Positions 10,341 through 38,061 of a stretch of DNA of 39,720 nucleotides are shown here, piece after piece (positions within the stretch are counted from its first letter, which is position 1; every line of letters starts with the position of its first letter). A program made the position numbers and the translations under genes. The DNA lies in IMG/VR virus record IMGVR_UViG_3300030207_003925, positions 1-39,720 of that record; one strand, 5' to 3'. Under the pieces are notes generated by a model that was not told the DNA's origin, did not search any database, and saw only the letters and a list, made by a program, of their open reading frames with translations. Source of the stretch: a virus. Lineage: Duplodnaviria; Caudoviricetes.

Positions 10341-10994
10341 ATGAAGAATATCATTTTTGCAATTCCCGGTAGAGAGTTCTCAGGAAACTTTTTAAATTGT
10401 TGGACCGACACTTTACTTAAGTGCATCAAAAACGGAATCAACCCACTGCTTTCCAACAAGTATTCTTCGATGGTAAGTTATGCAAGATGCCTATGTCTTG
10501 GTGCCGATGTGCGACGAGGTATCCACCAAGCTCCCTTTGATGGTAAAATCGATTACGAATATATAATGTGGATCGATTCAGATATTGTTTTTAGCTTTGA
10601 ACAAATACAAAGATTAATGTCTTACGATCAAGATATTGTTTCTGGAATTTACAAAACTGAGAACGGGCAAAACTTCGCCTGCGTTAAGGACTGGGATCAA
10701 GAGTATTATAAAAAGAACGGCTCATTTTATTTCTTACAACAACAAGACGTTGCTAACCATAAAGGTTTGATGGAAGTTGATTATAACGGCATGGGTTTCA
10801 TGCTAATTAAAAAGGGAGTGTTTGAAAAAGTTGAATACCCTTGGTTCTGTCAGCTTAAAAAACAGATCGGCGATTTAGAAGATTACTGTTCCGAAGATGT
10901 TGCATTCTGCCACCTTGCAAAAAAATCTGGATTTAAAATCTTTATTGACCCGCAGGTTGTTGTTGGTCATGAGAAAATGAGGATATTAACTTAG
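10341..10994 (+). CDS. GT-A fold (GT2-like) glycosyltransferase
   Basis: YIMWIDSDIVF (DxD), EVDYNGMGFMLIKKGVFE, SEDVAFC and VGHEK motifs. Confidence 0.85.
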   Translation: MKNIIFAIPGREFSGNFLNCWTDTLLKCIKNGINPLLSNKYSSMVSYARCLCLGADVRRGIHQAPFDGKIDYEYIMWIDSDIVFSFEQIQRLMSYDQDIVSGIYKTENGQNFACVKDWDQEYYKKNGSFYFLQQQDVANHKGLMEVDYNGMGFMLIKKGVFEKVEYPWFCQLKKQIGDLEDYCSEDVAFCHLAKKSGFKIFIDPQVVVGHEKMRILT

Positions 10995-12093
10995 TAATCT
11001 TTTCCTTAACCATTTCGAAAGTTATCTCGCGAGAACATTCGTGCTGCCTTGATGTACCGTAATGCTTAGGGCAGTAGAAGGGATCCTCTATACCGCTTTT
11101 AAATCTCCAAACAACTCCTTCTGAGTTTTTTATAAACCTATCTATCACTTCTTCATGTTCGTGCTTGCCCCAGCAACCATGACAAACATCTTTGTTTATA
11201 ACTCTATAAGGGTTTTCAAATTCACATTCTTCATCGGTGAACCCCGCTATCATAACAACAGGTTTACCAACAGCCCAAGCTAACCAAGACAAACCCGAGC
11301 TAAGACCTATAAAAAAATCACAGAAATGTAGGTCGTTGACTCTTTCAGAAAGCGGTCTGTACCCCGTCCTTTTTATACAGCCGTTAGGTACGTTCATTTT
11401 TACCAACCTATAGTCAACTACATCATCACCATCTATACAAAGAACTTCGTAACCCAGCTCTTTAAGGTATTTTATTATATCGTTCCATCCGTTCTTTCGC
11501 AGCCAGTATTTATGATATGAACTAGCGTGAGTAGCAATACAAACATATTTCTTTTCAATATTTCTTTTGAGTTTTGGTCTATCTATCTTTGGGCGTAGTT
11601 CTTCTTTTTCTAAATTAAGTATTGTAGCGGGCCATTGAAGCATAGGTACTCCCCCTAGTACAATATTTGCCTGCACCTGCACATCTACCTTCTCTAAGTT
11701 CTGACCCTTTTTAAGAAAAGTGATATTAGGATAACTTTTTTCAAATAACTCAGGGTATTTTACTTTTACATAAATTTTGCATTTATATTTCTTCCTGAAC
11801 TTCTCAATATATTCAGGCCATACAATAGCATCGCCTAGAGCGACATTAGCAAATCTAATGAATACTATTTGGCCTTCTAATTTATATTGGTAGTTGAAAA
11901 CTTTTTTATCACCGTTAAAAGCTTCGATGATCCATTCTCTGAGAACAGGTACCTTGAGGCTAACGGTTCCTTTTTTTATTTTTTGCTCTGTGTAATATTC
12001 GCCAGACTCTTCACGGATTTTTACAAGCAGCTCCTTTTCAGAATCAACTTTTACCTTCGGGTAATCTATTAAATTTAATTCAATGGATGCCAC
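10942..12093 (-). CDS. TibC/Aah-like autotransporter O-heptosyltransferase homologue (GT-B, GT9-related BAHT family)
   Basis: ALGDAIVW, KYVCIA...HKYW...GW..II.YL...GY.V.CID, FFIGLSSGLSWLAWAVGKPVVMIAGFT, and four Cys in VCHGCW...YCPKH.GT.RQHEC. The GTG start overlaps the TAG of the fibre gene. Confidence 0.85.
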   Translation of the reverse strand: MASIELNLIDYPKVKVDSEKELLVKIREESGEYYTEQKIKKGTVSLKVPVLREWIIEAFNGDKKVFNYQYKLEGQIVFIRFANVALGDAIVWPEYIEKFRKKYKCKIYVKVKYPELFEKSYPNITFLKKGQNLEKVDVQVQANIVLGGVPMLQWPATILNLEKEELRPKIDRPKLKRNIEKKYVCIATHASSYHKYWLRKNGWNDIIKYLKELGYEVLCIDGDDVVDYRLVKMNVPNGCIKRTGYRPLSERVNDLHFCDFFIGLSSGLSWLAWAVGKPVVMIAGFTDEECEFENPYRVINKDVCHGCWGKHEHEEVIDRFIKNSEGVVWRFKSGIEDPFYCPKHYGTSRQHECSREITFEMVKEKITKLISSFSHDQQQPAGQ

Positions 12094-15000
12094 TAACTAC
12101 TATCTTCGAGGGCTTGAACTTTACTTTCCAATATTTCTATTTTTCTTATCGCTTCATTTAAAGCGCCCCATAAAACAGGCACGAGAGTCGTATAATTTAC
12201 CTTTTGATATATAGGTACTCCGTTTTCATCTACGCCATCTTTTTTGCCTTCTACCGCTCCATCAATACCTAAAGCTTCAAGCTCATGAGCAATAAATCCT
12301 ACTCTTCCTCCGTAAGATGCAGGACGAGGAATAGTATAATCATCCTGCATAGCTTGAGCAAATTTTTCAGCATCGAAATCAAATTTACGACAGCTAACGC
12401 TTTTAACTTTTGTCCAAGACTCAGAGTTGAAGTCCTTTATGTTTTTCTTTAACCTATAATCGGAAGATGAAGACGAGCTGAAATTAACAGTACTTCCGCT
12501 TGCAGATATACTAATGCCGCTTTGAGTAAAGCTGATACCATTAGACGAAGTCTGTGCGGTGCCAGCGCCTACAGATATGTGATTCATCGCTGTCGAGCCG
12601 TTACCGCTTGCGTTGAGGCCGCTTATGTTTAAAGTCACATCTCCACTAGTTCCGCCGCCACTTAAACCAATACCGGCTCCTACGCCAGTTATGTCTCCGC
12701 TCCCGCCGCCGCCGCTAGAATTAATAGTAACATCATTTCCACTTCTGGTAACTGTTACATTTGTTCCCGCTATTATTCTAACTAACTCTCCATTGCCTAT
12801 GTTAGCTCCCGGGGATTCAGAGTCTATACCCCAATTCCAGCTAGACATAGTACCGTAGCCCGCACCATTAGTTAGCTGATTAGTATTTGTTGGTATGGTA
12901 GTACTATTAAAAGCGTTGGAACCAAAGATTTCTGAAGATAGTTTTCTCTTTTGAGTTCCATTATCTAAAACAATAAATTCATCAGCGCTATTATCCCAAC
13001 CTTGAGTCATGTCGTCCAACTCACTGAGGTCAAGATCAATATCAATAGTCCCAGAGCTAGTAATCGGAGAGCCTGACACGTCTAGACCCGTTCCTACCGT
13101 TACAGCTACAGAAGTAACACTTCCGCCGCCACTAGTAACAGTCTGCCAAGTATTATCTCCTCTTAGGAATTTAGTATTTGTTGCGCCGCTACCTAATCTA
13201 GCGACGTTAATTGTGCCTGAGCTAATGTTTGAAGCATTTAAAGCGGTCAAGCCTGATCCATTTCCGCTTATGTTGCCAGTAGTTGTAATTGAACCTGCGC
13301 TTCCGTCTAAAGTTATAGTTGTATTAGCGCCTTGATCTTTTAGTATTAAATCTCCACCGTTTGTAGTAGTCCCTGATAAAATCGCATAACTTGTAACCCC
13401 AAGTCCTAAGCTTATTGTTCCACCACTTATGATACCTGCATAATCAACAGAATTTAATTCAACTAATTTATTAGAACCTGAATTATCAAACATTCTAATG
13501 TAACCTTGAGAATTAGAAGAAGGAGTATTAGAAATAAAAACTTCACTATTTCCACTAGCTTTTATAGTTCCAACAACATGTAATTTTTTACTAGGATCTG
13601 TAGTTCCTATACCAATATTACCACCACTAAAAACATGATGCGCGCTACCTACAGTCTCATAATTGGTATAAGTAGAATAAGCGAGAATTGTAAACCTATT
13701 TGAAGTATTACCTAATGCTAAAACAGGGTAGACTCCATTAATGGTTAAAGAAACAATATTAGTTCCAGAATAAGCCGATCCCGCTGATCCAATTTTCAGA
13801 TTTCCCGTAGTTGTATCATCGGCATCACTCCGCAAAAATGAAGTAGCTTGTAAACCGTCTAGCAAATCAGCGTCAAGACCAGAACCTGCTCCGTCATTAA
13901 CATTATCCCAAACTGTCCTCCAACCTTGTGCGTTATTATTAGCAATTAGCTGTGTTCTAATCTGACCTGCCCCAGTACCAGTCATCTGCACCGCAATGGT
14001 GTTACTGTAATAACTATACGGATTTCCATGCCCCATTCTGATAGTATTATACCAGTCTGTAGTAGGAGCTAATTTTGTATCAGTTATGCTGGCGGCTTGT
14101 TGATATTCTAAAACGCTACCGGGTGATCCTGTTGTAGCAAATGCGCTACCAGTAACCATGTTAGATTTGTCAGCAGTACCAGAGAGAGTTCCGGAGAATG
14201 TAGCTGCTGTAACTGTCCCGCTAAAATTTCCAGCTTCAGAATAAACGTTATTCCAACGATTTCCAGAGAGGCCTAAATCTTTTGTCCCGTTGGAAGTTCC
14301 CGGATAGACTGCGCCTGAAGTTATTGTCAGCATGGATGTAGCGTTAGCTTTGAAATATATAATGCCAGCACCAAAATAAATTGATTCATCAGTCGCTAAA
14401 GCACTTCCGTTATATATTCCAGAGTAGGTTGAGTCGCTATATATTTTTAATTTAGTTGCGGCAGAACCAATTATCGCATCTCCAAGGACTTCTAATTTTG
14501 CACCCGGATCAGTGGTTCCTATACCAACACTACCAGTAGGAAAGGAAACTCTATTGTTAGCTCCCCCGCCATCAGCATAAACACCCATATACTCCGCTGA
14601 AGTGGAATTATTATTAGCAACATATAAACCAAATGGGTGACCTGAATCATACCTACTACTTAAAACAGTGTAAAAAGTGCTAGGAGAAGAGCTTGTTTGT
14701 AATAACAATTGATCACTGTTATTCTGAACCGTTAAAGGTTTTGACGGACTTGCAGTACCTATACCCAAACGACCTAACTTAGAAAACGTAAATTTATTTG
14801 TCCCAGTCGCAGCGGGAGTAGTGCTTGTGGCAAAATCAATTTGTAGGTTTCTGTTACCCCCTATAGTGAGGTATGTATCTTTGCCCGAACCCTCTGCAGC
14901 TAAAAACAACGTACTATTGTAACCATCTTGCCCAACAACAGCCAACACATTGTTTTCACTGGCTCTCTCCAAGTGCAAACCAACAGACGGAGTTGCGATA

Positions 15001-16373
15001 CCTATACCAACACTACCAGTGTCAAAAAAGAAATCGCCGCTACTATAAAAGGACATGTAATCAGAATTATGGTTATAGCGTATGAGTCCTTGCGCATTAG
15101 CCGCGACATCAGCAAAAAATATTGAACCAGTTCCAGAATTTGAGTTGCAACGAATGGTCATACCAACATCCGTAGCAGCAGAAGCAATTACAAAATCATC
15201 GGCAGCAGCATGAGGTGATGCGCCAGCACTTCCTACGTGAAGGAGAGCGTCTGGAGCAACTGTTGCTATGCCGACATTGCCATCCTTAAGCACTATGTAG
15301 CGGTTGGTGTTACTGGAATCACCTATTGCTCCATAGTTTTCGTTAGCTGACAGGCGAAGTTTTTCTGCTGTTCCACACTCGAACCGTAAATGCGGTCTGT
15401 CACTTGCGCCAGAACTAATTTTAATTCCACTATCAGCACCAAATACCTCAAGCGGATTATCGGGACTAGTTGTTCCTATACCAACATTACCTTCCATACT
15501 GATCCGCATCCTCTCCGACCAATCTGTTGTATGGTCCGCCGTGCTGTTTGTATAAAAAGCTAACGCACTCCTAAAATAATTGCCTTCACCAATTTGCACT
15601 ATCCCAGCAGAGCGTTTTGAATAACCTCCATAATTTGGCTTCCAAGTAATACCGCTACCTAAAGTGTTTGAAGTAGCTGCGCTGTTACCATTAGTAGGGT
15701 CAAAATAAAGCTGAACAGTTGAACTCGTTATGTTAGAACCTCTTGTATCTACATTGCCGTTGAATACGTGAAGATTATTAATCGGATTATTTGTTCCTAT
15801 ACCAAGTCTCCCACCGGAATTTGAGCCATCCATTACGAATGTAGATGCAACGGTATTGTTAATCGTACTGAAAGCGAAACCAAAATTACATTTATGCTCT
15901 AGGGAAGTTCCTGTATAGCTTCCGAAGCTGCTAAAGCTAACAGACCCATCGCCAAAAGCTATAACGTCAATGTATACAGTAACGTTTGCATTACCAGAAG
16001 TATCAGCTTTTATTTGAACTAAGCAGTCCTCATTGTCATTTGTAATTACTTTAACATGAAGCGGAGTATAGTTTCCAGTCTGAGACTTTATAGTGATATC
16101 CTTAGAATGGTTTAATAAAACATCTACTTGGGTAGGGATAACAACGTTACCAGTTGTTCCTTTAACAAAAAATCTGAAATTTCCAGCTAGTCCGCCGGGA
16201 ACGGTATACTCAAAAATAGAAGTATAAGCGCCGCCAGTAAGAGTTATCCCCGCGCCATAGATTCTAGTCCCCGGCTCAAAAGTGTTTGAACTAGGAGAAC
16301 CCTCAAAGAAAAGGCTGCTGCTTCCTGTTACTTTTAAATCTCCATTTACAGTTGTGCTTACTAGTGATGCCAT
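12093..16373 (-). CDS. Tail fibre with C-terminal intramolecular chaperone (peptidase S74)
   Basis: About 7 G.vGIGT..P repeats, GAGSGLDADLLDG motif, Gly/Ser/Thr-rich. Ends SSDYRLKKNI...GFIAHE...VNY..LVPVL..A..E plus a coiled coil. Confidence 0.9.
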   Translation of the reverse strand: MASLVSTTVNGDLKVTGSSSLFFEGSPSSNTFEPGTRIYGAGITLTGGAYTSIFEYTVPGGLAGNFRFFVKGTTGNVVIPTQVDVLLNHSKDITIKSQTGNYTPLHVKVITNDNEDCLVQIKADTSGNANVTVYIDVIAFGDGSVSFSSFGSYTGTSLEHKCNFGFAFSTINNTVASTFVMDGSNSGGRLGIGTNNPINNLHVFNGNVDTRGSNITSSTVQLYFDPTNGNSAATSNTLGSGITWKPNYGGYSKRSAGIVQIGEGNYFRSALAFYTNSTADHTTDWSERMRISMEGNVGIGTTSPDNPLEVFGADSGIKISSGASDRPHLRFECGTAEKLRLSANENYGAIGDSSNTNRYIVLKDGNVGIATVAPDALLHVGSAGASPHAAADDFVIASAATDVGMTIRCNSNSGTGSIFFADVAANAQGLIRYNHNSDYMSFYSSGDFFFDTGSVGIGIATPSVGLHLERASENNVLAVVGQDGYNSTLFLAAEGSGKDTYLTIGGNRNLQIDFATSTTPAATGTNKFTFSKLGRLGIGTASPSKPLTVQNNSDQLLLQTSSSPSTFYTVLSSRYDSGHPFGLYVANNNSTSAEYMGVYADGGGANNRVSFPTGSVGIGTTDPGAKLEVLGDAIIGSAATKLKIYSDSTYSGIYNGSALATDESIYFGAGIIYFKANATSMLTITSGAVYPGTSNGTKDLGLSGNRWNNVYSEAGNFSGTVTAATFSGTLSGTADKSNMVTGSAFATTGSPGSVLEYQQAASITDTKLAPTTDWYNTIRMGHGNPYSYYSNTIAVQMTGTGAGQIRTQLIANNNAQGWRTVWDNVNDGAGSGLDADLLDGLQATSFLRSDADDTTTGNLKIGSAGSAYSGTNIVSLTINGVYPVLALGNTSNRFTILAYSTYTNYETVGSAHHVFSGGNIGIGTTDPSKKLHVVGTIKASGNSEVFISNTPSSNSQGYIRMFDNSGSNKLVELNSVDYAGIISGGTISLGLGVTSYAILSGTTTNGGDLILKDQGANTTITLDGSAGSITTTGNISGNGSGLTALNASNISSGTINVARLGSGATNTKFLRGDNTWQTVTSGGGSVTSVAVTVGTGLDVSGSPITSSGTIDIDLDLSELDDMTQGWDNSADEFIVLDNGTQKRKLSSEIFGSNAFNSTTIPTNTNQLTNGAGYGTMSSWNWGIDSESPGANIGNGELVRIIAGTNVTVTRSGNDVTINSSGGGGSGDITGVGAGIGLSGGGTSGDVTLNISGLNASGNGSTAMNHISVGAGTAQTSSNGISFTQSGISISASGSTVNFSSSSSSDYRLKKNIKDFNSESWTKVKSVSCRKFDFDAEKFAQAMQDDYTIPRPASYGGRVGFIAHELEALGIDGAVEGKKDGVDENGVPIYQKVNYTTLVPVLWGALNEAIRKIEILESKVQALEDSS

Positions 16374-19300
16374 TTAAATCCTTTTTTTCAATTCCTGAAC
16401 TTCTTTATATAGTTCTTTAAATCCTCCCAACAGTACAGTCACTGCTCGACTGTAATTTACACTAGAAGGATTACCTTTTTCGTCCTTCTCAACTAGTTCT
16501 GGAAAGAGTTCTGCAAGTTCTTCCGCGATTAAACCGATTTCTTTTTTCTTCTTATTTTCTTTTCTATTGTATTTTACTGGGCGGATTTTATTTATTATAT
16601 CTAAGCTTGGAGTATAGGTTTCAACATTTTCTTTTATAGCGATACTTGAAGTTTCAGTTAAGGTTCCTGTTACTGTAACTCCGTTAGTAGTAGTTTCTAG
16701 TTTTTTACTATTATCGTAATATAGGCTAACTGCTCCATTCTGGTCGCCGTCCATCATGGACTCGGTGTCACCTGCGTTTCTGATGACAAAATTAGAGGCT
16801 AATATTTTCAGAAAACCAGTACCATTATCGCTTATGTAACTGTTGCTCCCATCGTGGTAAATCTCCAGATCGTCGCTACTACCTATCTTGATTTTTGAAT
16901 TGTCGTTTAGCTTTAAAGTATTGTTGACTTGGAATCTGTCGCTCTCTACTTGGGCGGTGTAGTTAGCATTATTAACGCCCATATAAATACGGACATTGGA
17001 ATTTAGGTATGTTGTGCCAGCAGTATGTTGCAGTAGTGCATAGCTTGTAGTGGTGCTTCTGTCTCTGTGAGAAAAGCCAGCGTAATCACCATGACCAAAT
17101 CCTCCCCCAATTTTAGTCGGGCCAATTAGTGCGTAGTCTGTGTTGCCATCGTTTCCGACTTCAAGTAACTCACCCGGACTAGTTGTTCCTATTCCAACAC
17201 TACCATCTTTATTGACAATCATCGCGCAGGCATCACTGAAGTCCAACTTCAACAAATTACTACCATCACCATGTCCTTTTGCCCCGCGGTTGCCACCGTT
17301 ATATGCCCTTATCAGAGCGTGATCTCCATTCCAAGTTGAGTTATCTGCTAGATAAGATATAAAAGGAGAAGTCGCGCTATTAGTACCAACACCTAACCTT
17401 CCATAAGCTGAAAGCGTTACTGTAGCATTATTAGTACTAAAGTTGGTAAGTGTGGCGGTATTAGTTAAAGTAGTTCCCGACTCACTTAAAAAGGAAGAGT
17501 CTGTTAGGCCGTTTGCTCCCGACCATTTAGCAATTTTCCCACCAGTACCACTACCACTTACATTTCCGCCGCCGTCAGTCGTTTCTATAATGTTGCCGCT
17601 TGAGTCAACTGAAAGTTGATAGGCAGCAGTCCCTGTATGAGTTCCCGATCCGTATTTGTTTAATTTTAGTTGTCCTGTTTCGCCTGATAAATCTAACAAC
17701 CAATCGCTGGCTGAGAATGCCCCTGTACCTGCGTGCCTACCTATACTAAAGTCTGCGCCAGAAGTATTGTTACCGTTGGAATCAAGGTTGATAAAAAGCG
17801 CACCATATGTGTTAATCCTTAGATCATCAGCCGCAGCACCCGCAGAATTACGAGATGAAATAGAATGATCCGCACTACTGTTACCATAGAAAGTGATATA
17901 TTGACCGGCTGATTCAAAGTCAATATCGCCATCTACCGTGAGTAGTCCGTCAACGTAAGCAGTGCCGTCAAGCATAGTATTCCCGTTTACGTATAGCTTG
18001 TACGACCCCGGATTTGTTGTGCCTATACCAACATTACCACTACCATCTATTCTTACTTGCTCCGCATCTGAAGTCTTGAATTGTATATAAGAAGCATTAT
18101 CCCCAATGAAAATTGGCTTGTTTACATTTTGACTATTTCCAGTTGCAAAATAATAACCACTAGAATCTTGCCCTGCTAATATTTCATCATCCCCACCGAA
18201 TAGATAACTAGCAGCAGACTGTGATAATTTTACCCCGTTAGCTGTAGTCTGAAACGTCTTGGTGTCGTTATAGTAAAGTTCTACTGCGCCATTATTAGTA
18301 GCTTTAAGAGCAGTTTCTCCAGAATGAACTTTAATATATACATCACCACTTGCGCCTGCTTGTACAATAACATCACCACTTGAATTTAAATTTCTTAGAT
18401 ATAGATCCCCTGCACCATTCGCATCAATCCAATTATTACCATCGTGGTAAATTTGCAGATCGTTACTAGCTCCCATTATAATTTTTTTGTTGTCTGGGAA
18501 CTTTAATTGACCTGAGCTTAATGCCATTTGTTCATTGTCTTCAATCTGAAAGACCATCGAGCTTGAACTCTGTCGCGAGTTTATATAAATGTTTGCGTTG
18601 TTTCTTATTCGTGAAACTTGAAAACAATTAGCAGCGTCATAACCAACCCTTAAAGTTGCTCTTGATCCCCCACCGGAACCAGCGGTTTTAAAAATATTTA
18701 AATAAGAGTCGGCGGCAGCAGAATCAGTAGTACTAGAATTAATAATACTCTGTGAAGCCGCTGTTCCTGTTATGCTTAAAAGAGCATCTATTGTTACGTT
18801 CCCATTTAAATATGTAGTTCCGTTATTATATAAATCATAGCTGTTATTTGGAGATCCAATAGATAATTTACCAGCTATATCTAATCCTGACACTCCGGGT
18901 TGAGTTGATCCTATGCCAACGTTACCATTAGTATCTATAGTTAATCTTGTATTAGTACTGGAGCCAGTTCCCTTATCAATAATTTGAAAACCTACCCCTT
19001 GATCCACCAAGAAATCAAAAACTTGATTGCTGCTATCTAAATCTTCAATTCTTAAAACGGCGTCAGTTCCGCTAGATTTAATATGTAGGGCTTTTGCGGG
19101 AGTATTAGAAGCCGCGCAGTTACCCACTATTAGACTATTAATTCTGCCAGTGCCGTTAACGTGTAGTAGGTTGTAAGGACTATTTGTTCCTATACCAACA
19201 CTACCCGTTGAAAATTCATGCCGAACATCGGATTTATATGTAACGCCTGTGCTCGCGCTAACTACCACTTCGTTAGTTGAATTATTGCCCCCAGCACGTA

Positions 19301-22300
19301 CATGAGTATTATTACCAGATTTTGCACTGACATAGGTATTACCGTCAGCTGAGCTAGTGGTTCCACTTATAATCATGTAATCGCTGGCGCCGGTCATGGC
19401 ACTTGTCTTTAGGCCGGTATAATCGTTGCTTTGAGAGTATGCGGCTTCGCCCAAAAGCAATCCATGAGTTTCAGCGCCTTTTACCTGCATTGCCCCTAAA
19501 GAGGCAGTTCTTACATCAAGAATGTATCCGGGATTAGTTATTCCTATACCAACATTGCCATCTTCTAATATCCGTACTAATTCTGTGCCGCCTCCACTTG
19601 CCCCATTTGTATAAAATCCAAAATATCTATTGGTATCATCGTTATCAGTATCGATGTTGAAAGTCATATTCTCATAAGCATTAATATGAGCTGAACTGCT
19701 GTCTGCAGTTCCTATATTGACTACCCCGTATTTTATATCTAAAGTGCCGTCGGCTTGTATCCGCATCTGTTCAGTAACAGAAGTTGCGTTATTGGTCGTT
19801 AAAAATGCCAGATATCCACTAACCGCACTATTGGTATTAGACTGAACTCCTCCTCGAACTTCGGAGTAAACCATGTTAGCAGTACCATCATTATCTTTCC
19901 CTGTAAACTGAAGGTATCCCAATGGTGCACCATTAGCGGGAGAAGCGCTGTTGTTGTAAAGCTTTAATGCTGGAGCATTGTTGGTCCTCTCAAGTTTCAA
20001 AGTATCTCCAAAGACATGGAGCTTTGAGTCGGGACTATTTGTTCCTACTCCAACATCAGCCCCGCTAGGACCGAGAGCTATTTTTGACGCAGATGCACTT
20101 GTATCAATACTAAAAACCCCATCATTATCAACCCACCTTAAAAAGGCATCACTATTAAAATATAATTGCGCTCTTTTCGCAGCGGGAGCTAGTATGGATA
20201 TGCCAGCATGATCGGAGCCTTCAACTATGAGCTCGTCTGCACCGGTGAGAAAAGTTTGACTACTGGCGCCGCCGCGAACATATAATTTTGCTGTATCGGG
20301 ATTTGTTGTTCCTATACCAACCTTGCCATCAGCCCTTTTTATTGTTAATATACCGGTTTGGACGTTGTCCTCTACCTGCTCTATATAAAAATTGTTTGTT
20401 GATTCTTCGTATTTTAATTTAGTGCCGTAAGTGGATGAGCTTCCGTCTTGGAAAAAAATACCTTTAGTAGTCGAGGTGGGGACCTGAATTGATAATATAT
20501 CCGCTGGATCATTTGTTCCTATTCCAACGTTACCGTCAGATGTAAATCTAACCACTTCCTCAAGCGCTGTAGCGCCAGTATTTTCTAAAGAAAAAGCTAA
20601 GTCGGCTGCTGCATTATTATTGGCATTTCTTATAGAGGTTATTCTCGCGCCGTATCTGTTATTAGTGTTAGTAGTAGACGTCTTTAAGAATATAGAAGCT
20701 CCGTAGCCTACTGCGCTGTGAGAAAGTTGGCAGAAAATATGGTTATCACCTGCGGAATTACCTTCTCCCCTAATAGTTACTTTACCATTTAGATTTGAAT
20801 CTGTGCCTATGCCTATAGTACCATTATCAAATATATTAGAATTACCAATAGTATCGGTATCAGTCCATCTTGCGATATAGTTTGTAGTGCCGCTTCCATC
20901 TACAACTCCTGACCCTAAATTGCCCTCAATGACATTACCAGAAGAATCTACCATTAACCGATAGGCTGCGGTTCCCGTGTGAGTTCCGGAGCCGTAAGTG
21001 TTAAATTGTATAGCGCCACCATACTTAAACATTACGGCAGCTGTTGATTGGTTTGGCATGAAGGTGAAATCACCCGTACCTTCGCTATATCGTATCCGAC
21101 CCGCAACGCTTCCAACATTGTTATACCAATCGATATCCATGTTGGTAGCGTTAGTAGTATTTTCTATAACAATTCCAGCTGTATTAGTGCCTTTTATATG
21201 CAGTGGTTTATCTGGGTCAGTTTCCCCTATACCGACATTACCGTCTTCTTGGATATATAGAGCGTCTACAAGACTATCACCAGAGTTAACTGTAAACAAT
21301 AGATCGCCTGTAGCTGCGCCACCGGGAGCAGTAGCTAAAGATCTTATCCTTGCAGCAGTATTAGTAGCTGCCCCCGTACTTACGCTGCCACCCCCAAATA
21401 AAATATCTTGGTTACCGCTGGACCATGTATTTTTTAAAATTATATTAGCTCCATTGTTACCAAAAGTTCCTTGTCCTTCAACATGCAGCTTTGTACTGGG
21501 AGTTGTTGTCCCTATACCAACATTCCCACCATTATCTATCGTTACTTTAGTTGAACCTGAAATCTGAAAAGCTAATTCAGATTCGCCTGTTGCTCCATTA
21601 TTATAAATATTAGCGTTAGTATTATTAGCTGCATTTAGAAATTGCAGTTTATTGCCAGAAATTATCCTAAGCGCAACGCCAGATGAATTAGCCGTGTGAA
21701 TATCTAAAGGTGCAGAAGGGGCGGCGCCTATGCCAACACTGCCTCCCATAATGTGCATAGTTTCAGTATCACTCCCTGCTACCATAGTACTGAATGTCAA
21801 ACGGCCATCTTCTGTCCCGCCAGTATTATCAGCAATAAATGTTTCTATAGTACCGTAACGTGTGTTATTATTTCCGCTATCATTACCGTCGAAGTAAAGG
21901 AAACCAATTAAGTCGCCGTCACCATTTCTGTCTGATCGTAAGGTTAAACCTGCTTGACCAGCACCATCATTTTCAAATAGTATTTCTAAAGCAGAAGCGG
22001 AATTTTGATAAATGTGAAGCGGGGCGCCGGGACTATCTATACCTATGCCAACGCTACCATCCACAAAAAGATTCGCATTATTAACCTTAACATCACCAAC
22101 GGGGTTTAAATTAATGTCGCCTGTTCCACCGTAAATATAAGCGTGTGCAAAATTTGAATTATTTTGACCAACAATTAAGTTATTGCTGTCAGTAATACCA
22201 ACTAAAGTGGCTAGAGCTCCTCCTGAAGTATATCCGTAATGATAATTATTATTGCTAATTAAAGTACTGCCAGCGACATGTAATTTTTGAGCTGTAGTTA

Positions 22301-25300
22301 GAGTACCTATACCGACATTACCCTGTAACCCTATATGAGTTTCTCCGGTTTGTCTGATTATTACGTCGTCTCCATTCGAAGCAGCGTCAATAAAGAAGTT
22401 GCCATTCGAATCGAGCATTCCAAAGTAAGCTGTATAATTATTTGTTCCGCCAGAAGTCTTGAGGTCAATACCAGCCCAGTTACCGGTGCTATTATTTTCT
22501 AATTTTATTTGACCTAAATCAGTGACAGCCAAATGACGACCCGGACTTGTTGTCCCTATGCCAACATTGCCGTCAGATATAATTCTAACAGCCTCAACCC
22601 CATTACCTGCTTGGAACGCAAGGCTATCATCAGGATTAGTATTACCAATAGTCATAAGACTAGTGGCATCACTATATTTTATTTCGGCTCCTGTAGCATC
22701 GTTTGGAGAAGCAAAAATAATTCTGGAAGTGTTAGCTGCTGCGGTAGCAATAGTAATTCCTGCGTTTCCATTTCCTTCGACTATTAAAGTATCCGCTGTT
22801 GAATCATAAGCGAATGAGCCCGGGTTAGACTCACGAATATGCAGTTTGCCAGATGGAGCATTTGTTCCTATACCAACATTAGCTCCATTCATTCGCATTA
22901 TCTCATTATTATCAACCTTAAATATCTGAGCACTATTTGCTTGGGCGTTGCCTTCGTCAGCAGAGACAGTAACTTGGCCGTTGTCGGCAGTAATCATCGA
23001 ATAGTTGCTGGTATCTAAAGTATCTTCCAGTCTTATCCGAGGGGCTTGAGCTGCTATATGAAGAGAGGCAGCCGGAGTAGCAGTTCCTATACCAATAGCA
23101 GTACCACTTTGTGCTATAACGGAATCCCCAAGGGTATCCCCATCTTCCCACTTCGGTACATAGTTGGCTGTTCCGTTTCCGCCGACACCAGAAAGCACAT
23201 CTTCAACTAATTTCCATTGGGGGCCATCTTCTTTACTTGTTAGAACGTAACCGTCGACTCCGGTGGAATTTGTTGAGTCGTAGAGATAACCGCTGATTAT
23301 AGCGTCGCCAGCAACATGAAGCCTGTGCTCTGGTGATGCATTATTGATTCCGACATTACCATCGGTATTTATTAAAAACTGAGAACTTCCACCTTTTTGT
23401 ATTTGAAAATTATTGTCGCCGTTGCCTGCGAATGATCTATCTAGAATAAAGTTATGGTTACCATTACTATCTGAATCTTGATCTGCTACTATTTTACAAT
23501 TAAGATCGTCTACATGAAATTCTATATCTTGAGCGGTATCTCTTCCAACTACTAATCTAGCTCCGTAACTAGGAGCTGCCGTAACATCTAATATTCTAAC
23601 TTGCCCTCCGTAAACATGGAGCTTTCCGAGAGGAGCCGTTGTCCCTATGCCGACATTGCCGTCAGCATTAATTCGCATCGCTTCATCAGCTGCGCCAATT
23701 CCATCAGTTTTAAAACGAACATAATCTTTTGTGGCAAGAGTAATTCCATATCCGGTGTGAACTGCATTAATTTCAAATTGGTTAGTCCTGTCGGCTCCTC
23801 CGCCAGTAGCTCCCCAGAAATTTATATATGCTGTTTTAGGATTATTTGTTAGACTTATGGTTGGGCCAACCGCATCATTTTGCCTAATATGTAATATTGT
23901 TCCCGGAGTAACTGTTCCTATTCCAACCTTACCATCGTTTTTAATGGTCATCGCTTGGGTCGAAGTATTCACCCAGAACGACATATCTGCATTACTATAT
24001 TGTAAGAGCTTGACCTCACCACTATTTCCAAATTTTTCAATAGTAAAATAATCAGTGCCACTAAAGTCAGCTCCGTCTGCGTCCAAGAATAAACGAGCAA
24101 ACCTACTTGTCGCCGTAGCGTGACCTAAAGAACTAAATCCGCCGCCTGCTCTTTCGGAGGCGGTTGATTGATTTGTTCTAAATATGGCATGGGTATAATT
24201 AGGGCCAGCGACAGTTAAAGCAGCTTCTGGAGCATTTGTTCCCACACCAACGTTGCCATCGCTATTAATAACAAGCCTATTAGCTCCGGCTAAATCTATA
24301 CTAAATCCGGCGTTTGAAACTCCAACAATAGCGGGAATAAAGTCAACCGTGTTACCTCCGGCAAAATTGCTGTTTAGACGTAGTCCTTTTTGCCCACCGC
24401 TTGTTATATAACTCTCTAGCTTTCCCCCGGGATCAGTTGTGCCTATACCAACATTACCGTCTGCGCCATTTATAGTCATAGCGTAACTGTAAGTGCCTCC
24501 TGTCCTACTTAAAAAACGTAAATCTGTATCATTGTTAGTTGGGCCAATTAATCCATTTGTCCCGTCAGATCCTATATTAATACCATTATTGCCATCAGCA
24601 GGAGTAATACGTAAGATTTGATTGGTCATCGCTGTGCCATTAGCGCTCCCATCACTGTTTACGTGAAGAGGAGTTACTGGATCATCTGTTCCTATACCAA
24701 CACTGCCATTAAAAAAACTGGTAGCCCCTATTCTTGCATGAGTTGTTGTTAACGGTGCTGTGCCTGAATTTGTAATAGGCCCGATCTCTACATCGGTGTG
24801 ACCAAAAAATGTGCCAAGCCCATCGGAGATTACTATTGCGCCGTGATTGGAAACACTATTACCCGGCACTTTAAGGTAAAGGTAATCCCCAAGCGCTGAA
24901 TACCAGCTAGAGAGCAAAACATCGTGAGTTGTGGCATTTGTCCAAGCAGACTCATAACGTCTTAACATTGTTCCTGAGCCGAGTGTCACAATGCCATCAA
25001 AATAGCTCGTCCCATGAACATACAGACCGTAGCTACCACTATGTACGCCTCCCACACCGAGTCTGTTTAAAATATCAACATCGCCATCAGCCTTAACAAC
25101 TACACGACTTGTGCCGCCTTGGTCTAGAGTCAATAGGTCCCCAGAACCATCACCCCGCACATGAAGAATCTGACCCGTAGAAGAGGCGTGATCGGATCGG
25201 ATTGATACAGCAGCATTAGTTGCTGTCCCCGTGTGAACCTCATTTGTATAAAAATACCCTACTGCTGCGGTTGTAGATGAGCCAACTGCGTGAAACGCCC

Positions 25301-25810
25301 TTGAAGTAGAGTCTCCTTTAATAAAAAGTTTAGCGGATGGCGTAGTTGTTCCTATGCCAACATCGCCGTCATTATCTATAGTTACCTTAGTCGCTCCCGC
25401 AATTTGAAAATCTAATTGAGCTACTCCTGACGCTCCATTATTATATATACTTGAGTTAGTGTTATTAGAGCCATTTAAAAACTGCATTTTATAGCCAGCA
25501 GTCACCCTAATGCCAACACTATCCCCATTCGCAGATTGGACGTCTAGCGGGGCAGCAGGAGCAGCTGTACCTAAACCAAAATTGCCGCCATTATTTATGT
25601 AGCTGTTAGCGTCAGCCTCAGCTTCGAAAAGAACTTTTGTGGTTCCATTAAGGTCTGCTAACAATAGCTGACCATCTCCATTAGCATCAGTTCCTAATAA
25701 AGCAGAAAGACTATCGTCAGCAGCGTAAGCTCCAAAATGCTTAGAGTCCCCTTTTATAGCAAGTAACCGTTGTGGGCCAGCTGTACCTATGCCAACATTA
25801 GTTCCATTAT
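13600..25810 (-). repeat. Dispersed coding repeat GNVGIGTxxP (about 35 copies in two fibre genes)
   Basis: The + strand consensus gttcctataccaacattacc recurs near 13603, 14515, 15472, 17185, 18020, 19186, 19541, 20308, 20515, 21508, 22864, 23915, 24440, 24688, 25348 and elsewhere. Confidence 0.9.
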
Positions 25811-26291
25811 CAACTAAAACTCCCGTTGTTATAGTATCTTCATCAGACCAACGAGCTACATAATTAGCAACGCCGGAACCTCCGACGCCAGATAAAACAG
25901 ATTCAATACTTTTCCAATTAACGCCGGTTGTTCCTTCGTTGGTGAGGACCATCCCTCCCTCTCCAATGGAATTATTAGAATCATAAATGTTTCCAGATAT
26001 ACCCAGCTTGTTAACATTAAGCCTATTACCATTAGTAAAAGTTAAATCAGCATCGCCGCCGAAAGCTCCTGCATTATTAAACTGAACTTGAGTATTCGCG
26101 CCGCCGGGAGTACCTCCTCCACCTCCGCCACCAGCTAATTGATTCCACTGAGAAGTGCCACCTGCCGTTCTCCTCACCCATTGAGTCAAGTTACCCGTGT
26201 CGATTAGATACGCGCCATCCAAAACACCTGTCGGTTTTGTATCCGAGGTGTTTACCGTAAATCTATCTCCTGCGTATCTTGTAATTGCCAT
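16374..26291 (-). CDS. Giant modular tail fibre (3305 aa) with C-terminal S74 chaperone
   Basis: About 27 G.VGIGT..P repeats separating variable beta modules. Ends TSSIAIKENV...IRPVKY...IGLIAEE...PELV...VNYSR plus a coiled coil. Confidence 0.9.
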   Translation of the reverse strand: MAITRYAGDRFTVNTSDTKPTGVLDGAYLIDTGNLTQWVRRTAGGTSQWNQLAGGGGGGGTPGGANTQVQFNNAGAFGGDADLTFTNGNRLNVNKLGISGNIYDSNNSIGEGGMVLTNEGTTGVNWKSIESVLSGVGGSGVANYVARWSDEDTITTGVLVDNGTNVGIGTAGPQRLLAIKGDSKHFGAYAADDSLSALLGTDANGDGQLLLADLNGTTKVLFEAEADANSYINNGGNFGLGTAAPAAPLDVQSANGDSVGIRVTAGYKMQFLNGSNNTNSSIYNNGASGVAQLDFQIAGATKVTIDNDGDVGIGTTTPSAKLFIKGDSTSRAFHAVGSSTTAAVGYFYTNEVHTGTATNAAVSIRSDHASSTGQILHVRGDGSGDLLTLDQGGTSRVVVKADGDVDILNRLGVGGVHSGSYGLYVHGTSYFDGIVTLGSGTMLRRYESAWTNATTHDVLLSSWYSALGDYLYLKVPGNSVSNHGAIVISDGLGTFFGHTDVEIGPITNSGTAPLTTTHARIGATSFFNGSVGIGTDDPVTPLHVNSDGSANGTAMTNQILRITPADGNNGINIGSDGTNGLIGPTNNDTDLRFLSRTGGTYSYAMTINGADGNVGIGTTDPGGKLESYITSGGQKGLRLNSNFAGGNTVDFIPAIVGVSNAGFSIDLAGANRLVINSDGNVGVGTNAPEAALTVAGPNYTHAIFRTNQSTASERAGGGFSSLGHATATSRFARLFLDADGADFSGTDYFTIEKFGNSGEVKLLQYSNADMSFWVNTSTQAMTIKNDGKVGIGTVTPGTILHIRQNDAVGPTISLTNNPKTAYINFWGATGGGADRTNQFEINAVHTGYGITLATKDYVRFKTDGIGAADEAMRINADGNVGIGTTAPLGKLHVYGGQVRILDVTAAPSYGARLVVGRDTAQDIEFHVDDLNCKIVADQDSDSNGNHNFILDRSFAGNGDNNFQIQKGGSSQFLINTDGNVGINNASPEHRLHVAGDAIISGYLYDSTNSTGVDGYVLTSKEDGPQWKLVEDVLSGVGGNGTANYVPKWEDGDTLGDSVIAQSGTAIGIGTATPAASLHIAAQAPRIRLEDTLDTSNYSMITADNGQVTVSADEGNAQANSAQIFKVDNNEIMRMNGANVGIGTNAPSGKLHIRESNPGSFAYDSTADTLIVEGNGNAGITIATAAANTSRIIFASPNDATGAEIKYSDATSLMTIGNTNPDDSLAFQAGNGVEAVRIISDGNVGIGTTSPGRHLAVTDLGQIKLENNSTGNWAGIDLKTSGGTNNYTAYFGMLDSNGNFFIDAASNGDDVIIRQTGETHIGLQGNVGIGTLTTAQKLHVAGSTLISNNNYHYGYTSGGALATLVGITDSNNLIVGQNNSNFAHAYIYGGTGDINLNPVGDVKVNNANLFVDGSVGIGIDSPGAPLHIYQNSASALEILFENDGAGQAGLTLRSDRNGDGDLIGFLYFDGNDSGNNNTRYGTIETFIADNTGGTEDGRLTFSTMVAGSDTETMHIMGGSVGIGAAPSAPLDIHTANSSGVALRIISGNKLQFLNAANNTNANIYNNGATGESELAFQISGSTKVTIDNGGNVGIGTTTPSTKLHVEGQGTFGNNGANIILKNTWSSGNQDILFGGGSVSTGAATNTAARIRSLATAPGGAATGDLLFTVNSGDSLVDALYIQEDGNVGIGETDPDKPLHIKGTNTAGIVIENTTNATNMDIDWYNNVGSVAGRIRYSEGTGDFTFMPNQSTAAVMFKYGGAIQFNTYGSGTHTGTAAYRLMVDSSGNVIEGNLGSGVVDGSGTTNYIARWTDTDTIGNSNIFDNGTIGIGTDSNLNGKVTIRGEGNSAGDNHIFCQLSHSAVGYGASIFLKTSTTNTNNRYGARITSIRNANNNAAADLAFSLENTGATALEEVVRFTSDGNVGIGTNDPADILSIQVPTSTTKGIFFQDGSSSTYGTKLKYEESTNNFYIEQVEDNVQTGILTIKRADGKVGIGTTNPDTAKLYVRGGASSQTFLTGADELIVEGSDHAGISILAPAAKRAQLYFNSDAFLRWVDNDGVFSIDTSASASKIALGPSGADVGVGTNSPDSKLHVFGDTLKLERTNNAPALKLYNNSASPANGAPLGYLQFTGKDNDGTANMVYSEVRGGVQSNTNSAVSGYLAFLTTNNATSVTEQMRIQADGTLDIKYGVVNIGTADSSSAHINAYENMTFNIDTDNDDTNRYFGFYTNGASGGGTELVRILEDGNVGIGITNPGYILDVRTASLGAMQVKGAETHGLLLGEAAYSQSNDYTGLKTSAMTGASDYMIISGTTSSADGNTYVSAKSGNNTHVRAGGNNSTNEVVVSASTGVTYKSDVRHEFSTGSVGIGTNSPYNLLHVNGTGRINSLIVGNCAASNTPAKALHIKSSGTDAVLRIEDLDSSNQVFDFLVDQGVGFQIIDKGTGSSTNTRLTIDTNGNVGIGSTQPGVSGLDIAGKLSIGSPNNSYDLYNNGTTYLNGNVTIDALLSITGTAASQSIINSSTTDSAAADSYLNIFKTAGSGGGSRATLRVGYDAANCFQVSRIRNNANIYINSRQSSSSMVFQIEDNEQMALSSGQLKFPDNKKIIMGASNDLQIYHDGNNWIDANGAGDLYLRNLNSSGDVIVQAGASGDVYIKVHSGETALKATNNGAVELYYNDTKTFQTTANGVKLSQSAASYLFGGDDEILAGQDSSGYYFATGNSQNVNKPIFIGDNASYIQFKTSDAEQVRIDGSGNVGIGTTNPGSYKLYVNGNTMLDGTAYVDGLLTVDGDIDFESAGQYITFYGNSSADHSISSRNSAGAAADDLRINTYGALFINLDSNGNNTSGADFSIGRHAGTGAFSASDWLLDLSGETGQLKLNKYGSGTHTGTAAYQLSVDSSGNIIETTDGGGNVSGSGTGGKIAKWSGANGLTDSSFLSESGTTLTNTATLTNFSTNNATVTLSAYGRLGVGTNSATSPFISYLADNSTWNGDHALIRAYNGGNRGAKGHGDGSNLLKLDFSDACAMIVNKDGSVGIGTTSPGELLEVGNDGNTDYALIGPTKIGGGFGHGDYAGFSHRDRSTTTSYALLQHTAGTTYLNSNVRIYMGVNNANYTAQVESDRFQVNNTLKLNDNSKIKIGSSDDLEIYHDGSNSYISDNGTGFLKILASNFVIRNAGDTESMMDGDQNGAVSLYYDNSKKLETTTNGVTVTGTLTETSSIAIKENVETYTPSLDIINKIRPVKYNRKENKKKKEIGLIAEELAELFPELVEKDEKGNPSSVNYSRAVTVLLGGFKELYKEVQELKKRI

Positions 26292-26293
26292 AA

Positions 26294-27196
26294 CTATGAA
26301 AAGTTAAATTTAAACCCGTAAAAAGCTCCACTGTTGTACTGCCCATCATTAGTATTAAAATATATTTTTATGGTATGTTGTACTCCAGCCTCCATATTTT
26401 GCAACGGGTTAACTGGCGTAGTAAAAGTCGCTTGTCCTCCTGCTGTCGTATAAGATCTTCTATTATCTTGGTCAACCTTAGTGTTAAGTTGATTTCGATT
26501 TTCATAATTAATTGCAGGGGGGGTTTGAGCTCCGGCCGAATTGAATAACTTAACTTGATTCATGTCCCAAGGATTGTCCTCATCTCCGCCGGGGGACTGG
26601 CCCTTGCATATATGGATGTCATTTACTGCCAAATGCATTTTTTCAAAATCTGAACTATACTTCTCTCCTAAGCCAGAAACTGTGATTGATAAATTTGAAG
26701 TGGAATTTAGCGTAAAAGACCCCTCTGCGTATCCACTTTGAATAAAATGATTAAAAACGTCCTCATAATATTTTTCGCTAGGTGAATTAGGACCGCTGTA
26801 AGTATTTTCTCTGGATAAATCCAGTACAGTTGTTTGGTCAGCCTCAAAAAACAAATTTAATTCTCTTCCATCGTTTTCTACGATGAAAGGATTACCTCTA
26901 TGATAGCCTTCTAAATTATTCTGACTGTAGCCTTCTAACAACCAGCCGAAAAAAGCGTTAGAGTTATCCGCTGTCCTATTTGATAAATAGTTGAAATAAT
27001 AATCTTCGTCATTTACTGTATAAGGATGAGCGCTTTGGGCTATCGCTGAGAAAAGAGGGCCATTACTTGATATAACTTCCCCGGCCCCAATATTAGATGC
27101 AGTATTATAATATAAATAAAGATCCCAATCGATTCTGATTTCCTCATCGCTTGGATTGCTTCCTTTCCAAAAGGCAGTTGGAAAATTAACACCCAT
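26294..27196 (-). CDS. Hypothetical virion-associated protein
   Basis: 300 aa, Asn/Tyr-rich, coupled to the fibre operon. The C-terminal part looks like a beta-sandwich. Confidence 0.65.
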   Translation of the reverse strand: MGVNFPTAFWKGSNPSDEEIRIDWDLYLYYNTASNIGAGEVISSNGPLFSAIAQSAHPYTVNDEDYYFNYLSNRTADNSNAFFGWLLEGYSQNNLEGYHRGNPFIVENDGRELNLFFEADQTTVLDLSRENTYSGPNSPSEKYYEDVFNHFIQSGYAEGSFTLNSTSNLSITVSGLGEKYSSDFEKMHLAVNDIHICKGQSPGGDEDNPWDMNQVKLFNSAGAQTPPAINYENRNQLNTKVDQDNRRSYTTAGGQATFTTPVNPLQNMEAGVQHTIKIYFNTNDGQYNSGAFYGFKFNFS

Positions 27197-28134
27197 TAGA
27201 ATACGTACCCTGTGATTGCCGAAGCAAATATAACTTGATCATAACAAACGAACGTATATACGTTAGTTCTTGCGCCATCTATGTGAGGAGGACCTCCAGT
27301 CCCTCCCCACTTAACATAAGATCCCGAGGCAAATGTAGGCAGTATAGACGTTGACGAATCAGTATTTTTAATATACATAGTCAAAGTTTGACCATGGAGA
27401 GCATTAGTAAAATTATAGTTTCTATCCGTATCAATACCTACTTTCTGGATATTTGATAAGCTCCAGTTTATATTAGTTCCGCCGCCAATATCATTTACAA
27501 GATGCCTTGAAGTATTTTCTATAATTATATCTTCTACTGTTAAATCTCCTCCGGTATTAGTTAAGTTGCCCTGAACAGTAACAGGTCCATTTAAATCTAT
27601 TTCAGTAGATCCGTTTATTTCTACTTCAGGCGCCGTTAAAGATACTTTAGCGTTATTATTAACAGATATGCCTCCTGCAGCGCTCCCTATGTTCCCCCCA
27701 TCTTGAAAAGTTATCTCAGAACCAACATTACCAATATTATTGTCCTGCATGTTGATGTCACTAGCCGCGTCGTAATTCCATGGAGTAGTTGCTGAGTCGA
27801 AGGCTACTCCACTCCCAGTCACGATAAGACCGTCAGATTTTCTAACTTGAAGGTAAGGAAATGAAGCTACGTCAGTGTTTGATGCATTTACCCAATTATC
27901 GTCATTGTTATTAAAATAAATATCTTTATTAACTCCTGATAAAGTGCCCGCAGGAAAACCTACGTAGGCTGAGTTATCACCCGTAAAGATGAAATCTGCT
28001 AATTCTTTTGTGGTTATTTTCTTAGTGGTGTACGGACCAGTTGAAGACCCGGCGCCAACAGGGAGAAGATAGAAGCCACTTACAGCTTCATTTGTTCCCA
28101 TTCCTACTAATTGAGATATTTTTTTATTTGCCAT
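27196..28134 (-). CDS. Short fibre/virion structural protein
   Basis: MANKKISQL N-terminus typical of phage fibre proteins. C-terminal INW..SNIQ...F.N...GQTL...I.N...KW...P...NVYTF domain. Confidence 0.7.
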   Translation of the reverse strand: MANKKISQLVGMGTNEAVSGFYLLPVGAGSSTGPYTTKKITTKELADFIFTGDNSAYVGFPAGTLSGVNKDIYFNNNDDNWVNASNTDVASFPYLQVRKSDGLIVTGSGVAFDSATTPWNYDAASDINMQDNNIGNVGSEITFQDGGNIGSAAGGISVNNNAKVSLTAPEVEINGSTEIDLNGPVTVQGNLTNTGGDLTVEDIIIENTSRHLVNDIGGGTNINWSLSNIQKVGIDTDRNYNFTNALHGQTLTMYIKNTDSSTSILPTFASGSYVKWGGTGGPPHIDGARTNVYTFVCYDQVIFASAITGYVF

Positions 28135-37548: not shown

Positions 37549-38061
37549 ATGAGTGACATTTCTCAAATAGCGCCAGAGGTGATGAATGTGGCTACTAACT
37601 TAGCCGATTTATCTCAAGGTCAAATGGACAAACAGAAAGTGGAAGGTTTTTTGGAGAGCCTTATCGGGGAATATGGATGGCTATTGTTAATAGCTATTAT
37701 GACTATAATGGCGAAAGATATGATAATGAATTTCGCTCAAGGGATTCTTGTATTTATGGGGAGTAACTTTAACAACGATGACATTATCTATATTTCTGGC
37801 CGTCAAGCGCGTATAGTTCGCGTCGGAATTCGTAATACGGTTTTTTACATGACGGACCGCAAAACTAAGATGTTGGTGCCAAATGAGCAGTTAAAACAGC
37901 TTACTATTGAAAAGACTTTACCTAAAAATGGCGGAGAGCCTTATTTACCAAAAGCTAGTGATCCCAGTTTTATTGGTTGGGAGGAAGTTCCAATAAATCC
38001 TCCGCCTATGCAGGTTGAAGTGGTAGAAAAACCTACCAGAAGGACAAGAAGTAAAAAATGA
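37549..38061 (+). CDS. Truncated MscS-like membrane protein
   Basis: A TM segment, then KDMIMNFAQGILVF...FNNDDIIYISG..ARIVRVGIRNT...VPNEQL, matching MscS TM3b and the middle beta domain. The C-terminal cage domain is absent. Confidence 0.7.
   Translation: MSDISQIAPEVMNVATNLADLSQGQMDKQKVEGFLESLIGEYGWLLLIAIMTIMAKDMIMNFAQGILVFMGSNFNNDDIIYISGRQARIVRVGIRNTVFYMTDRKTKMLVPNEQLKQLTIEKTLPKNGGEPYLPKASDPSFIGWEEVPINPPPMQVEVVEKPTRRTRSKK

Follow-up and report, generated by a model that had tools for sequence, protein, structure and literature searches.

A TibC-type glycosyltransferase encoded behind an S74 tail fibre in a phage from marine metagenomes

Results

We analysed a virus sequence of 39,720 nucleotides (IMG/VR record IMGVR_UViG_3300030207_003925; Duplodnaviria, Caudoviricetes), hereafter the window, which is the entire 39.7-kb record. 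Its structural operon, on the minus strand, ends in a stand-alone gene of 383 amino acids (10942..12093) encoding a TibC/Aah-type enzyme of glycosyltransferase family 9 (GT9). The gene follows that of a 1426-amino-acid tail fibre with a mosaic body (12093..16373, minus strand), and its GTG start codon has one base in common with the TAG stop codon of the fibre gene (TAGTG). The runs containing this stretch carry marine or seawater metagenome labels. A first-pass annotation had proposed that the enzyme and its neighbours form a 17-kb system for O-heptosylation of the virion, modelled on the bacterial autotransporter heptosyltransferases (BAHT); the assignment of the enzyme to that family is borne out by profile, structure and residue comparisons, as described below.

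The translation of the enzyme gene holds each of the motifs named in that annotation (LGD..W, KYW, GLSSGLSWLAWA, CHGC, CPKH and HEC). The TIGR04414 profile matches it with 280.6 bits (E 1.8e-83) against a cut-off of 200, a score that passes for BAHT membership, and the TibC entries 4RAP (E 2.2e-47) and 4RB4 are its sole sequence matches in the PDB. Profiles of lipopolysaccharide (LPS) heptosyltransferases gave 20.7-29.3 bits against cut-offs of 170-467, including weak RfaQ/WaaC matches, and PF21129 was without a match in the Pfam scan. The motif and family signal is far beyond chance, and the enzyme is genuinely related to TibC, which glycosylates a bacterial adhesin. A 254-nucleotide contig from an RNA run maps inside the gene, which is no proof of transcription because DNA may occur in such libraries.

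An AlphaFold model of the enzyme, built from 84 sequences (predicted local distance difference test score, pLDDT, 88.9), has TibC as its top Foldseek match, with a template-modelling (TM) score of 0.85 and E 1.5e-36 over 389 columns; WaaF and WaaC reach TM 0.38-0.49. This comparison had been set beforehand as the check on the assignment, and the closest fold is that of TibC with its four cysteines, not that of WaaC/WaaF. The model combines an N-terminal barrel, with five strands at residues 3-69, and a GT-B catalytic domain. Mapped onto the residue roles given in the accessible text of PMC4358343, D88 corresponds to the catalytic D110, K195 to K230, R251 to R286 and W270 to W305, all four being identical. 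The iron finger cysteines are all kept as well (C304, C307, C341 and C353), and metal binding is predicted.

We compared these positions across the clade formed by the window enzyme and its close phage relatives. Equivalents of D110, K230 and R286 are present in every clade sequence that covers them, and W305 and the four cysteines in 31 of 32; contacts to adenosine diphosphate (ADP), phosphate and O4 are kept. The window enzyme differs from TibC in having S191 for T226, S265 for P300 and H351 for F368. Serine at the T226 position also occurs in 23 of 74 bacterial homologues, and serine at the P300 position is found in Aah. Among the thumb contacts, F265 and V266 correspond to L230 and V231 in the window, and 11 of the 32 clade sequences carry Arg, Ser or Lys at the F265 position. 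The thumb segment measures 24 amino acids throughout the clade (32 of 32), in 73 of 74 bacterial sequences and in 62 of 81 others; thumbs that had seemed to be missing from other phage copies proved to be an alignment artefact. We also observed a 21-amino-acid insertion in the iron finger (window 11090-11156, minus strand), modelled with low confidence, which is common to the window and its 91-92% identical relatives and absent from the 70-75% identical ones.

Scanning metagenomes, we recovered 25 loci whose enzymes are 66-92% identical to that of the window. All 23 loci compared (the 22 of these that include the 5' end, plus L001) have an S74 tail followed by the TAGTG junction, though the fibre bodies are mosaic; these loci are not all independent, several being near-duplicates (L146 repeats L001). 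At L167 (504-1573) the enzyme gene is split in two pieces, by assembly error or decay. The proposed linkage of enzyme and fibre accordingly holds within the clade but is absent outside it: the S74-fibre layout was found at one of 35 IMG/VR loci, and the enzyme at none of 79 unrelated S74 loci within the flanks covered. The TibC-like domain sits in an open reading frame (ORF) of at least 600 amino acids at 22 of the other 34 IMG/VR loci, fused, where scanned, to GT4, GT2 or FkbM domains. With a limit of E 1e-30, the family comprises 721 clusters, and an IMG/VR search for the S74 type of the window returned only G001, a 170-kb relative rated complete, whose enzyme is 91% identical and which has a separate sugar island.

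The one-base overlap, which the first-pass annotation took as a sign of translational coupling, is real, but tight junctions are common along this operon: the p312 and p300 genes share one base, and the genes of the two fibres abut. Because junctions are tight throughout, the TAGTG overlap alone is weak evidence.

Two clade members without the enzyme, with terminases 93% identical to that of the window, clarify the extent of the unit. One is represented by L118, which belongs to the genome G002, and the other by L114, which equals L064 and L088. The enzyme is missing at the slot in both, and G002 lacks it anywhere in its record. Their last fibre shares a common stem with the enzyme-positive phages and then continues into a different head of about 190 amino acids without S74, for which C1q is a weak lead (12% of one Atlas cluster), followed by a 123-amino-acid ORF of unknown family. 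L118 and the enzyme-positive L168 share 96% identity as far as the 3' end of a convergent 217-amino-acid gene that overlaps the end of the enzyme gene, and similarity returns in the fibre stem. From the blastn breakpoints and protein ends, the swapped block covers about 2.1 kb in the window (approximately 10993..13104, minus strand). These alignments show tip, S74 chaperone and enzyme being exchanged as one block. Because the 3305-amino-acid first fibre, p300 and p312 occur in relatives without the enzyme, the unit is about 2 kb, and the 17-kb extent first suggested was not sustained. A search for further enzyme-negative clade members gave only the two already known.

Co-variation is concentrated in the same region. 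Over 15 loci, the Mantel correlation (rho) of enzyme identity was 0.83 with S74 identity, 0.45 with the 60-amino-acid tip and 0.20 with the stem (p 0.08); the N-terminal half of the enzyme correlated with S74 at 0.84 and the C-terminal half at 0.46. For the 10 loci with downstream genes, the values were 0.88 with S74, 0.20 with the overlapping 217-amino-acid gene and 0.04 with p195. The set of 15 omits nine short, broken or duplicate loci (L144-L146, L151, L155, L156, L159, L164 and L167). Decay with distance is expected from linkage; the asymmetry between S74 and the 217-amino-acid gene is not obviously so.

The last fibre ends in a Peptidase_S74 domain (PF13884, above cut-off at residues 1304-1368), an intramolecular chaperone that begins at residue 1304 (12093..12464, minus strand) and is the part co-varying most with the enzyme. 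Fibres of this type are trimeric once folded and lose the chaperone. Directly ahead of it lies the serine-rich 60-amino-acid tip (12465..12644, minus strand), our candidate acceptor. Serine makes up 20.8% of 15 distinct tips versus 12.3% of 65 unrelated S74 tips, a contrast that is not independent, and that its p value overstates, as the 15 tips are mutually related. A monomer model of the fibre end, whose pLDDT of 45 precluded a fold search, contains four short strands with two-residue loops between them. Aah recognises a strand-loop-strand motif and not a sequence, according to the available text of PMC3835316, and TibC modifies short peptides, according to that of PMC4358343. The modelled strands and loops would fit such a motif, which proves nothing.

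The slot also carries other genes in some relatives. Six loci hold a 222-amino-acid gene in addition to the enzyme (two were scanned, both GT34), L156 has a sulfotransferase-like ORF beside the enzyme, and L115 carries GT6, methyltransferase and GT4 genes on a contig that stops short of the fibre end. The sugar islands of G001 and G002 encode Gmd, GT4 and GT11. In the island of G002 (L102:512-1468) we also identified an HddA-like sugar kinase, whose best NCBIfam match is heptose-7-phosphate kinase, far under the cut-off.

Reading along the minus strand, the window encodes PhoH, a sigma factor, an ERCC4 nuclease, the terminase, the portal (a weak match), p472, p312, p300, the 3305-amino-acid fibre, the 1426-amino-acid fibre and the enzyme, followed by the convergent 217-amino-acid gene (10341..10994, plus strand). 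The gene past it is presumably prohead protease and scaffold, judging from its motifs. The giant first fibre (16374..26291, minus strand), which lies outside the exchanged block, has GNVGIG repeats and its own S74 domain (PF13884 above cut-off at residues 3215-3267), and both fibres match phage tail-fibre PHROG families. Upstream of the fibres, p300 and p312 (26294..28134, minus strand) are variable and of unknown family. The product of the 217-amino-acid gene is a GT-A-like glycosyltransferase candidate that belongs to phrog_1574, of unknown function, with weak matches to glycosyltransferase PHROGs. It is 85-100% identical within the clade, runs antisense to the structural operon, and occurs with and without the enzyme and in many unrelated phages.

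Lambda-like tail-tip genes in G001 point to a siphovirus. Among the best 20 of 107 matches to the terminase, cultured relatives had at most 28% identity, and the terminase search gave no GTDB locus. Moraphages were rejected as the lineage of the window phage, being larger than 200 kb and contractile-tailed according to the available text of PMC12619734.

Further genes of the window and its relatives deserve mention. A giant ORF of more than 1350 amino acids, cut by the window end (1-4050, minus strand), repeats a Thr/Ser/Asn-rich unit of about 25 residues many times and contains 19% Thr; in relatives, with and without the enzyme, it runs into a GNVGIG-type fibre, and it may be another acceptor. 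The p472 protein (28168-29586, minus strand) has no family match and two 26-27% identical paralogues in the G001 tail region (L092); we take it to be possibly a tail-tube-like protein beside the portal. An MscS-like mechanosensitive channel domain is encoded beside PhoH (37549-38061, plus strand). In G001, which also encodes a DnaE polymerase, an FtsZ/tubulin-like gene lies between RecA and DnaB (L095:9811-11115).

Discussion

The TibC-type enzyme encoded in the window is real, and its setting is new. Given the analyses presented above, we consider it somewhat probable that this enzyme O-glycosylates serines of the serine-rich tip of the last fibre during its S74-guided folding. Enzyme and fibre would be made together late in infection, and the enzyme would, like Aah, read short strand-loop-strand turns, here those of the tip, before the trimer folds under S74 guidance or while it does so. 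A sugar, possibly heptose, would be placed on tip serines in the host cytoplasm from a host nucleotide-sugar donor, and the GT34 and sulfotransferase-like slot genes of relatives might extend or cap it. The sugar may aid folding or tune the binding of the tip, and phages with the alternative head would manage without it. Use of ADP-heptose by the window phage is plausible; should the tip indeed be glycosylated, we would lean slightly towards host ADP-heptose as the donor.

Several observations weigh against this proposal, in addition to the poor tip model and the relatedness of the tips. The first-pass annotation had envisaged Ser/Thr/Gly-rich beta-repeat fibres as the substrate, but repeats of the AIDA type were not borne out: the fibres are S74 tail fibres with 4.2 and 1.5 SGG per 1000 amino acids, whereas two passengers of AIDA-I have 34 and 28. 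These counts reject an AIDA-like SGG repeat, and no autotransporter family matched among the window proteins scanned. Over whole fibres, serine content is alike in enzyme-positive (9.5-12.3%) and enzyme-negative (10.2-10.5%) phages. The two enzyme-negatives, L114 and L118, are the only ones showing the fibre end and are nearly identical in the slot, so the exchange counts as about one event.

The use of heptose is weakened by further points. At the P300 position, which governs stereoselectivity and recognises the side chain of the heptose, 27 of the 32 clade sequences have Gly, and at the F368 position 31 of 32 have His. In a tree of 38 rows chosen from 241, with sampling skewed towards phage sequences, the clade and the bacterial BAHT form separate groups, each with 100/100 support, and the backbone is unresolved; a joint grouping of the two was not rejected (approximately unbiased test, p-AU 0.74). 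A GmhA-type (SIS_2) isomerase is absent from G001, which is complete, and from G002 and G003, and was found in one of four genomes searched (G005). The 140-amino-acid nucleotidyltransferase of G001, which is also present in the enzyme-negative G002, scores 49.5 versus 181.5 for RfaE II and lacks the HENase motif in the form given in the accessible text of PMC11461863. We rejected a phage-encoded heptose pathway on the grounds of the missing SIS_2 isomerase in G001, G002 and G003 and the nucleotidyltransferase without the HENase motif.

Four readings of the locus were weighed, and all of them predict some linkage between enzyme and fibre. Co-exchange in particular is also expected from physical linkage or from a gene for receptor masking, which again tells against glycosylation of the tip. 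Under masking, the enzyme would alter a molecule on the host surface, either LPS core or an adhesin, to which the tip binds, and so block superinfection or the trapping of progeny. T5 offers a parallel, its llp gene travelling with pb5. GT9 includes the LPS heptosyltransferases, to which the enzyme has the weak profile matches described above, and host-surface modification is the usual published interpretation of phage sugar genes (available text of PMC12801897 and PMC10747093). We nevertheless regard masking as rather unlikely: the fold, with its N-terminal barrel and iron finger, is that of TibC and not of WaaF/WaaC, the gene stands at the end of the structural operon, and the linked tip is itself rich in serine.

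We judge it equally unlikely that the acceptor is another part of the virion, such as the other fibres, capsid proteins or a glycan whose synthesis the 217-amino-acid transferase or the sugar island initiates, with the slot serving for general glycan tailoring. The GT34, sulfotransferase-like and GT6, methyltransferase and GT4 genes in the slots of relatives speak for such a role, as do the sugar islands of G001 and G002 and the frequent multi-enzyme fusions of the domain elsewhere. The enzyme, however, tracks S74 and the tip and not the 217-amino-acid gene, it is gone where the tip is replaced while the remaining structural genes are unchanged, and the characterised family members modify protein serines (available text of PMC4358343). 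A very improbable reading is that a single insertion behind the fibre has been inherited along without acting on it: neighbouring DNA does recombine jointly, the gene is in two pieces in L167 and missing from some relatives, but the catalytic and metal residues persist among enzymes 66-92% identical, the junction is constant in 23 of 23 loci and the overlapping downstream gene does not co-vary.

Glycosylation of the fibre tip would be closest to the TibC-TibA and Aah-AIDA-I systems of Escherichia coli (4RAP and 4RB4; available text of PMC4358343). The phage enzyme has in common with them the whole-chain fold, the catalytic Asp, the R286/K230/W305 contacts, the four-Cys finger and the length of the thumb, and its gene likewise abuts one for a large beta-rich protein. 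That neighbour, however, is an upstream S74 fibre in the phage and a downstream autotransporter in the bacteria, and the phage system departs further in its fibres without the SGG repeat, its separate tree clade, the unmatched PF21129, and the His, Ser and Gly or Ser that the clade has at F368, T226 and P300 of TibC. With WaaC/WaaF/WaaQ, also of GT9, the enzyme shares the GT-B core and Pfam PF01075; they have neither barrel nor iron finger, and it scores far under their cut-offs.

Other large aquatic phages, such as Microcystis phage Mel-JY01 (WWT39291), have fused TibC-like domains with the same catalytic and Cys pattern, but these are mostly joined to GT4, GT2 or FkbM in sugar islands. Gly-Ser/Thr-Ser collagen runs lie near 8 of 81 distant TibC-like loci. 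In the window clade a search for a collagen-like acceptor was negative: neither the window nor G001, G002 and 75 loci of the clade contain a Gly-X-Y run longer than four triplets. In cultured Mel-JY01 (L036:4750-8430), the fusion of a TibC-like domain with GT4 is annotated just as an FkbM methyltransferase, and the same locus contains a Gly-X-Y run of 149 triplets. A second GT9 paralogue without the iron-finger Cys, with Arg for K230 and His for W305, was identified in L016, L005, L028, L029, L177, L192 and others; in other large phages it is often in tandem fusion with the TibC-like domain.

Exchangeable modules of a fibre tip and its partner are familiar from T-even gp37/gp38, lambda Stf/Tfa and T5 pb5/llp, where the fibre C-terminus and the next gene swap jointly, as they do here. 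The partner in those systems is a chaperone, adhesin or lipoprotein, whereas here it is a glycosyltransferase. Virion glycosylation in mycobacteriophages (Freeman et al. 2023) reportedly involves other transferase families. It would resemble the present system in using the phage's own virion proteins as acceptors, as proposed here, and differ from it in that ours has a TibC-type GT9 enzyme tied to the fibre tip. The mycobacteriophage glycans are on capsid and tail-tube C-termini, as reported in the available text of a citing paper (PMC12619734).

A full-text literature search, which covered few subscription journals and no supplementary tables, found no description of a phage TibC/Aah enzyme, and the accessible parts of PMC12014285, PMC12801897 and PMC9529941 contain no further case. 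A huge-phage gene labelled heptosyltransferase I was interpreted as acting in LPS modification (available text of PMC10747093).

We speculate, as a doubtful extension, that these marine siphoviruses switch by one recombination between a C1q-like head with a small partner and an S74-folded tip that is O-heptosylated, sometimes with the sugar extended or capped, by their own dedicated TibC-type enzyme, the sugar then contributing to the surface that binds. The bacterial adhesin heptosyltransferases would in that case represent one branch within a family of fibre-glycosylating enzymes that is mostly viral. The system is readily testable, as it offers a stand-alone 383-amino-acid enzyme, a candidate acceptor of 60 amino acids, natural enzyme-negative relatives and the ADP-heptose supply of E. 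coli. Phage sugar genes are usually dismissed as modifiers of host LPS. If our proposal is true, protein O-glycosylation would extend to phage fibres and be linked to the switching of their tips, and a structurally solved enzyme family would gain a new acceptor and possibly a new donor specificity.

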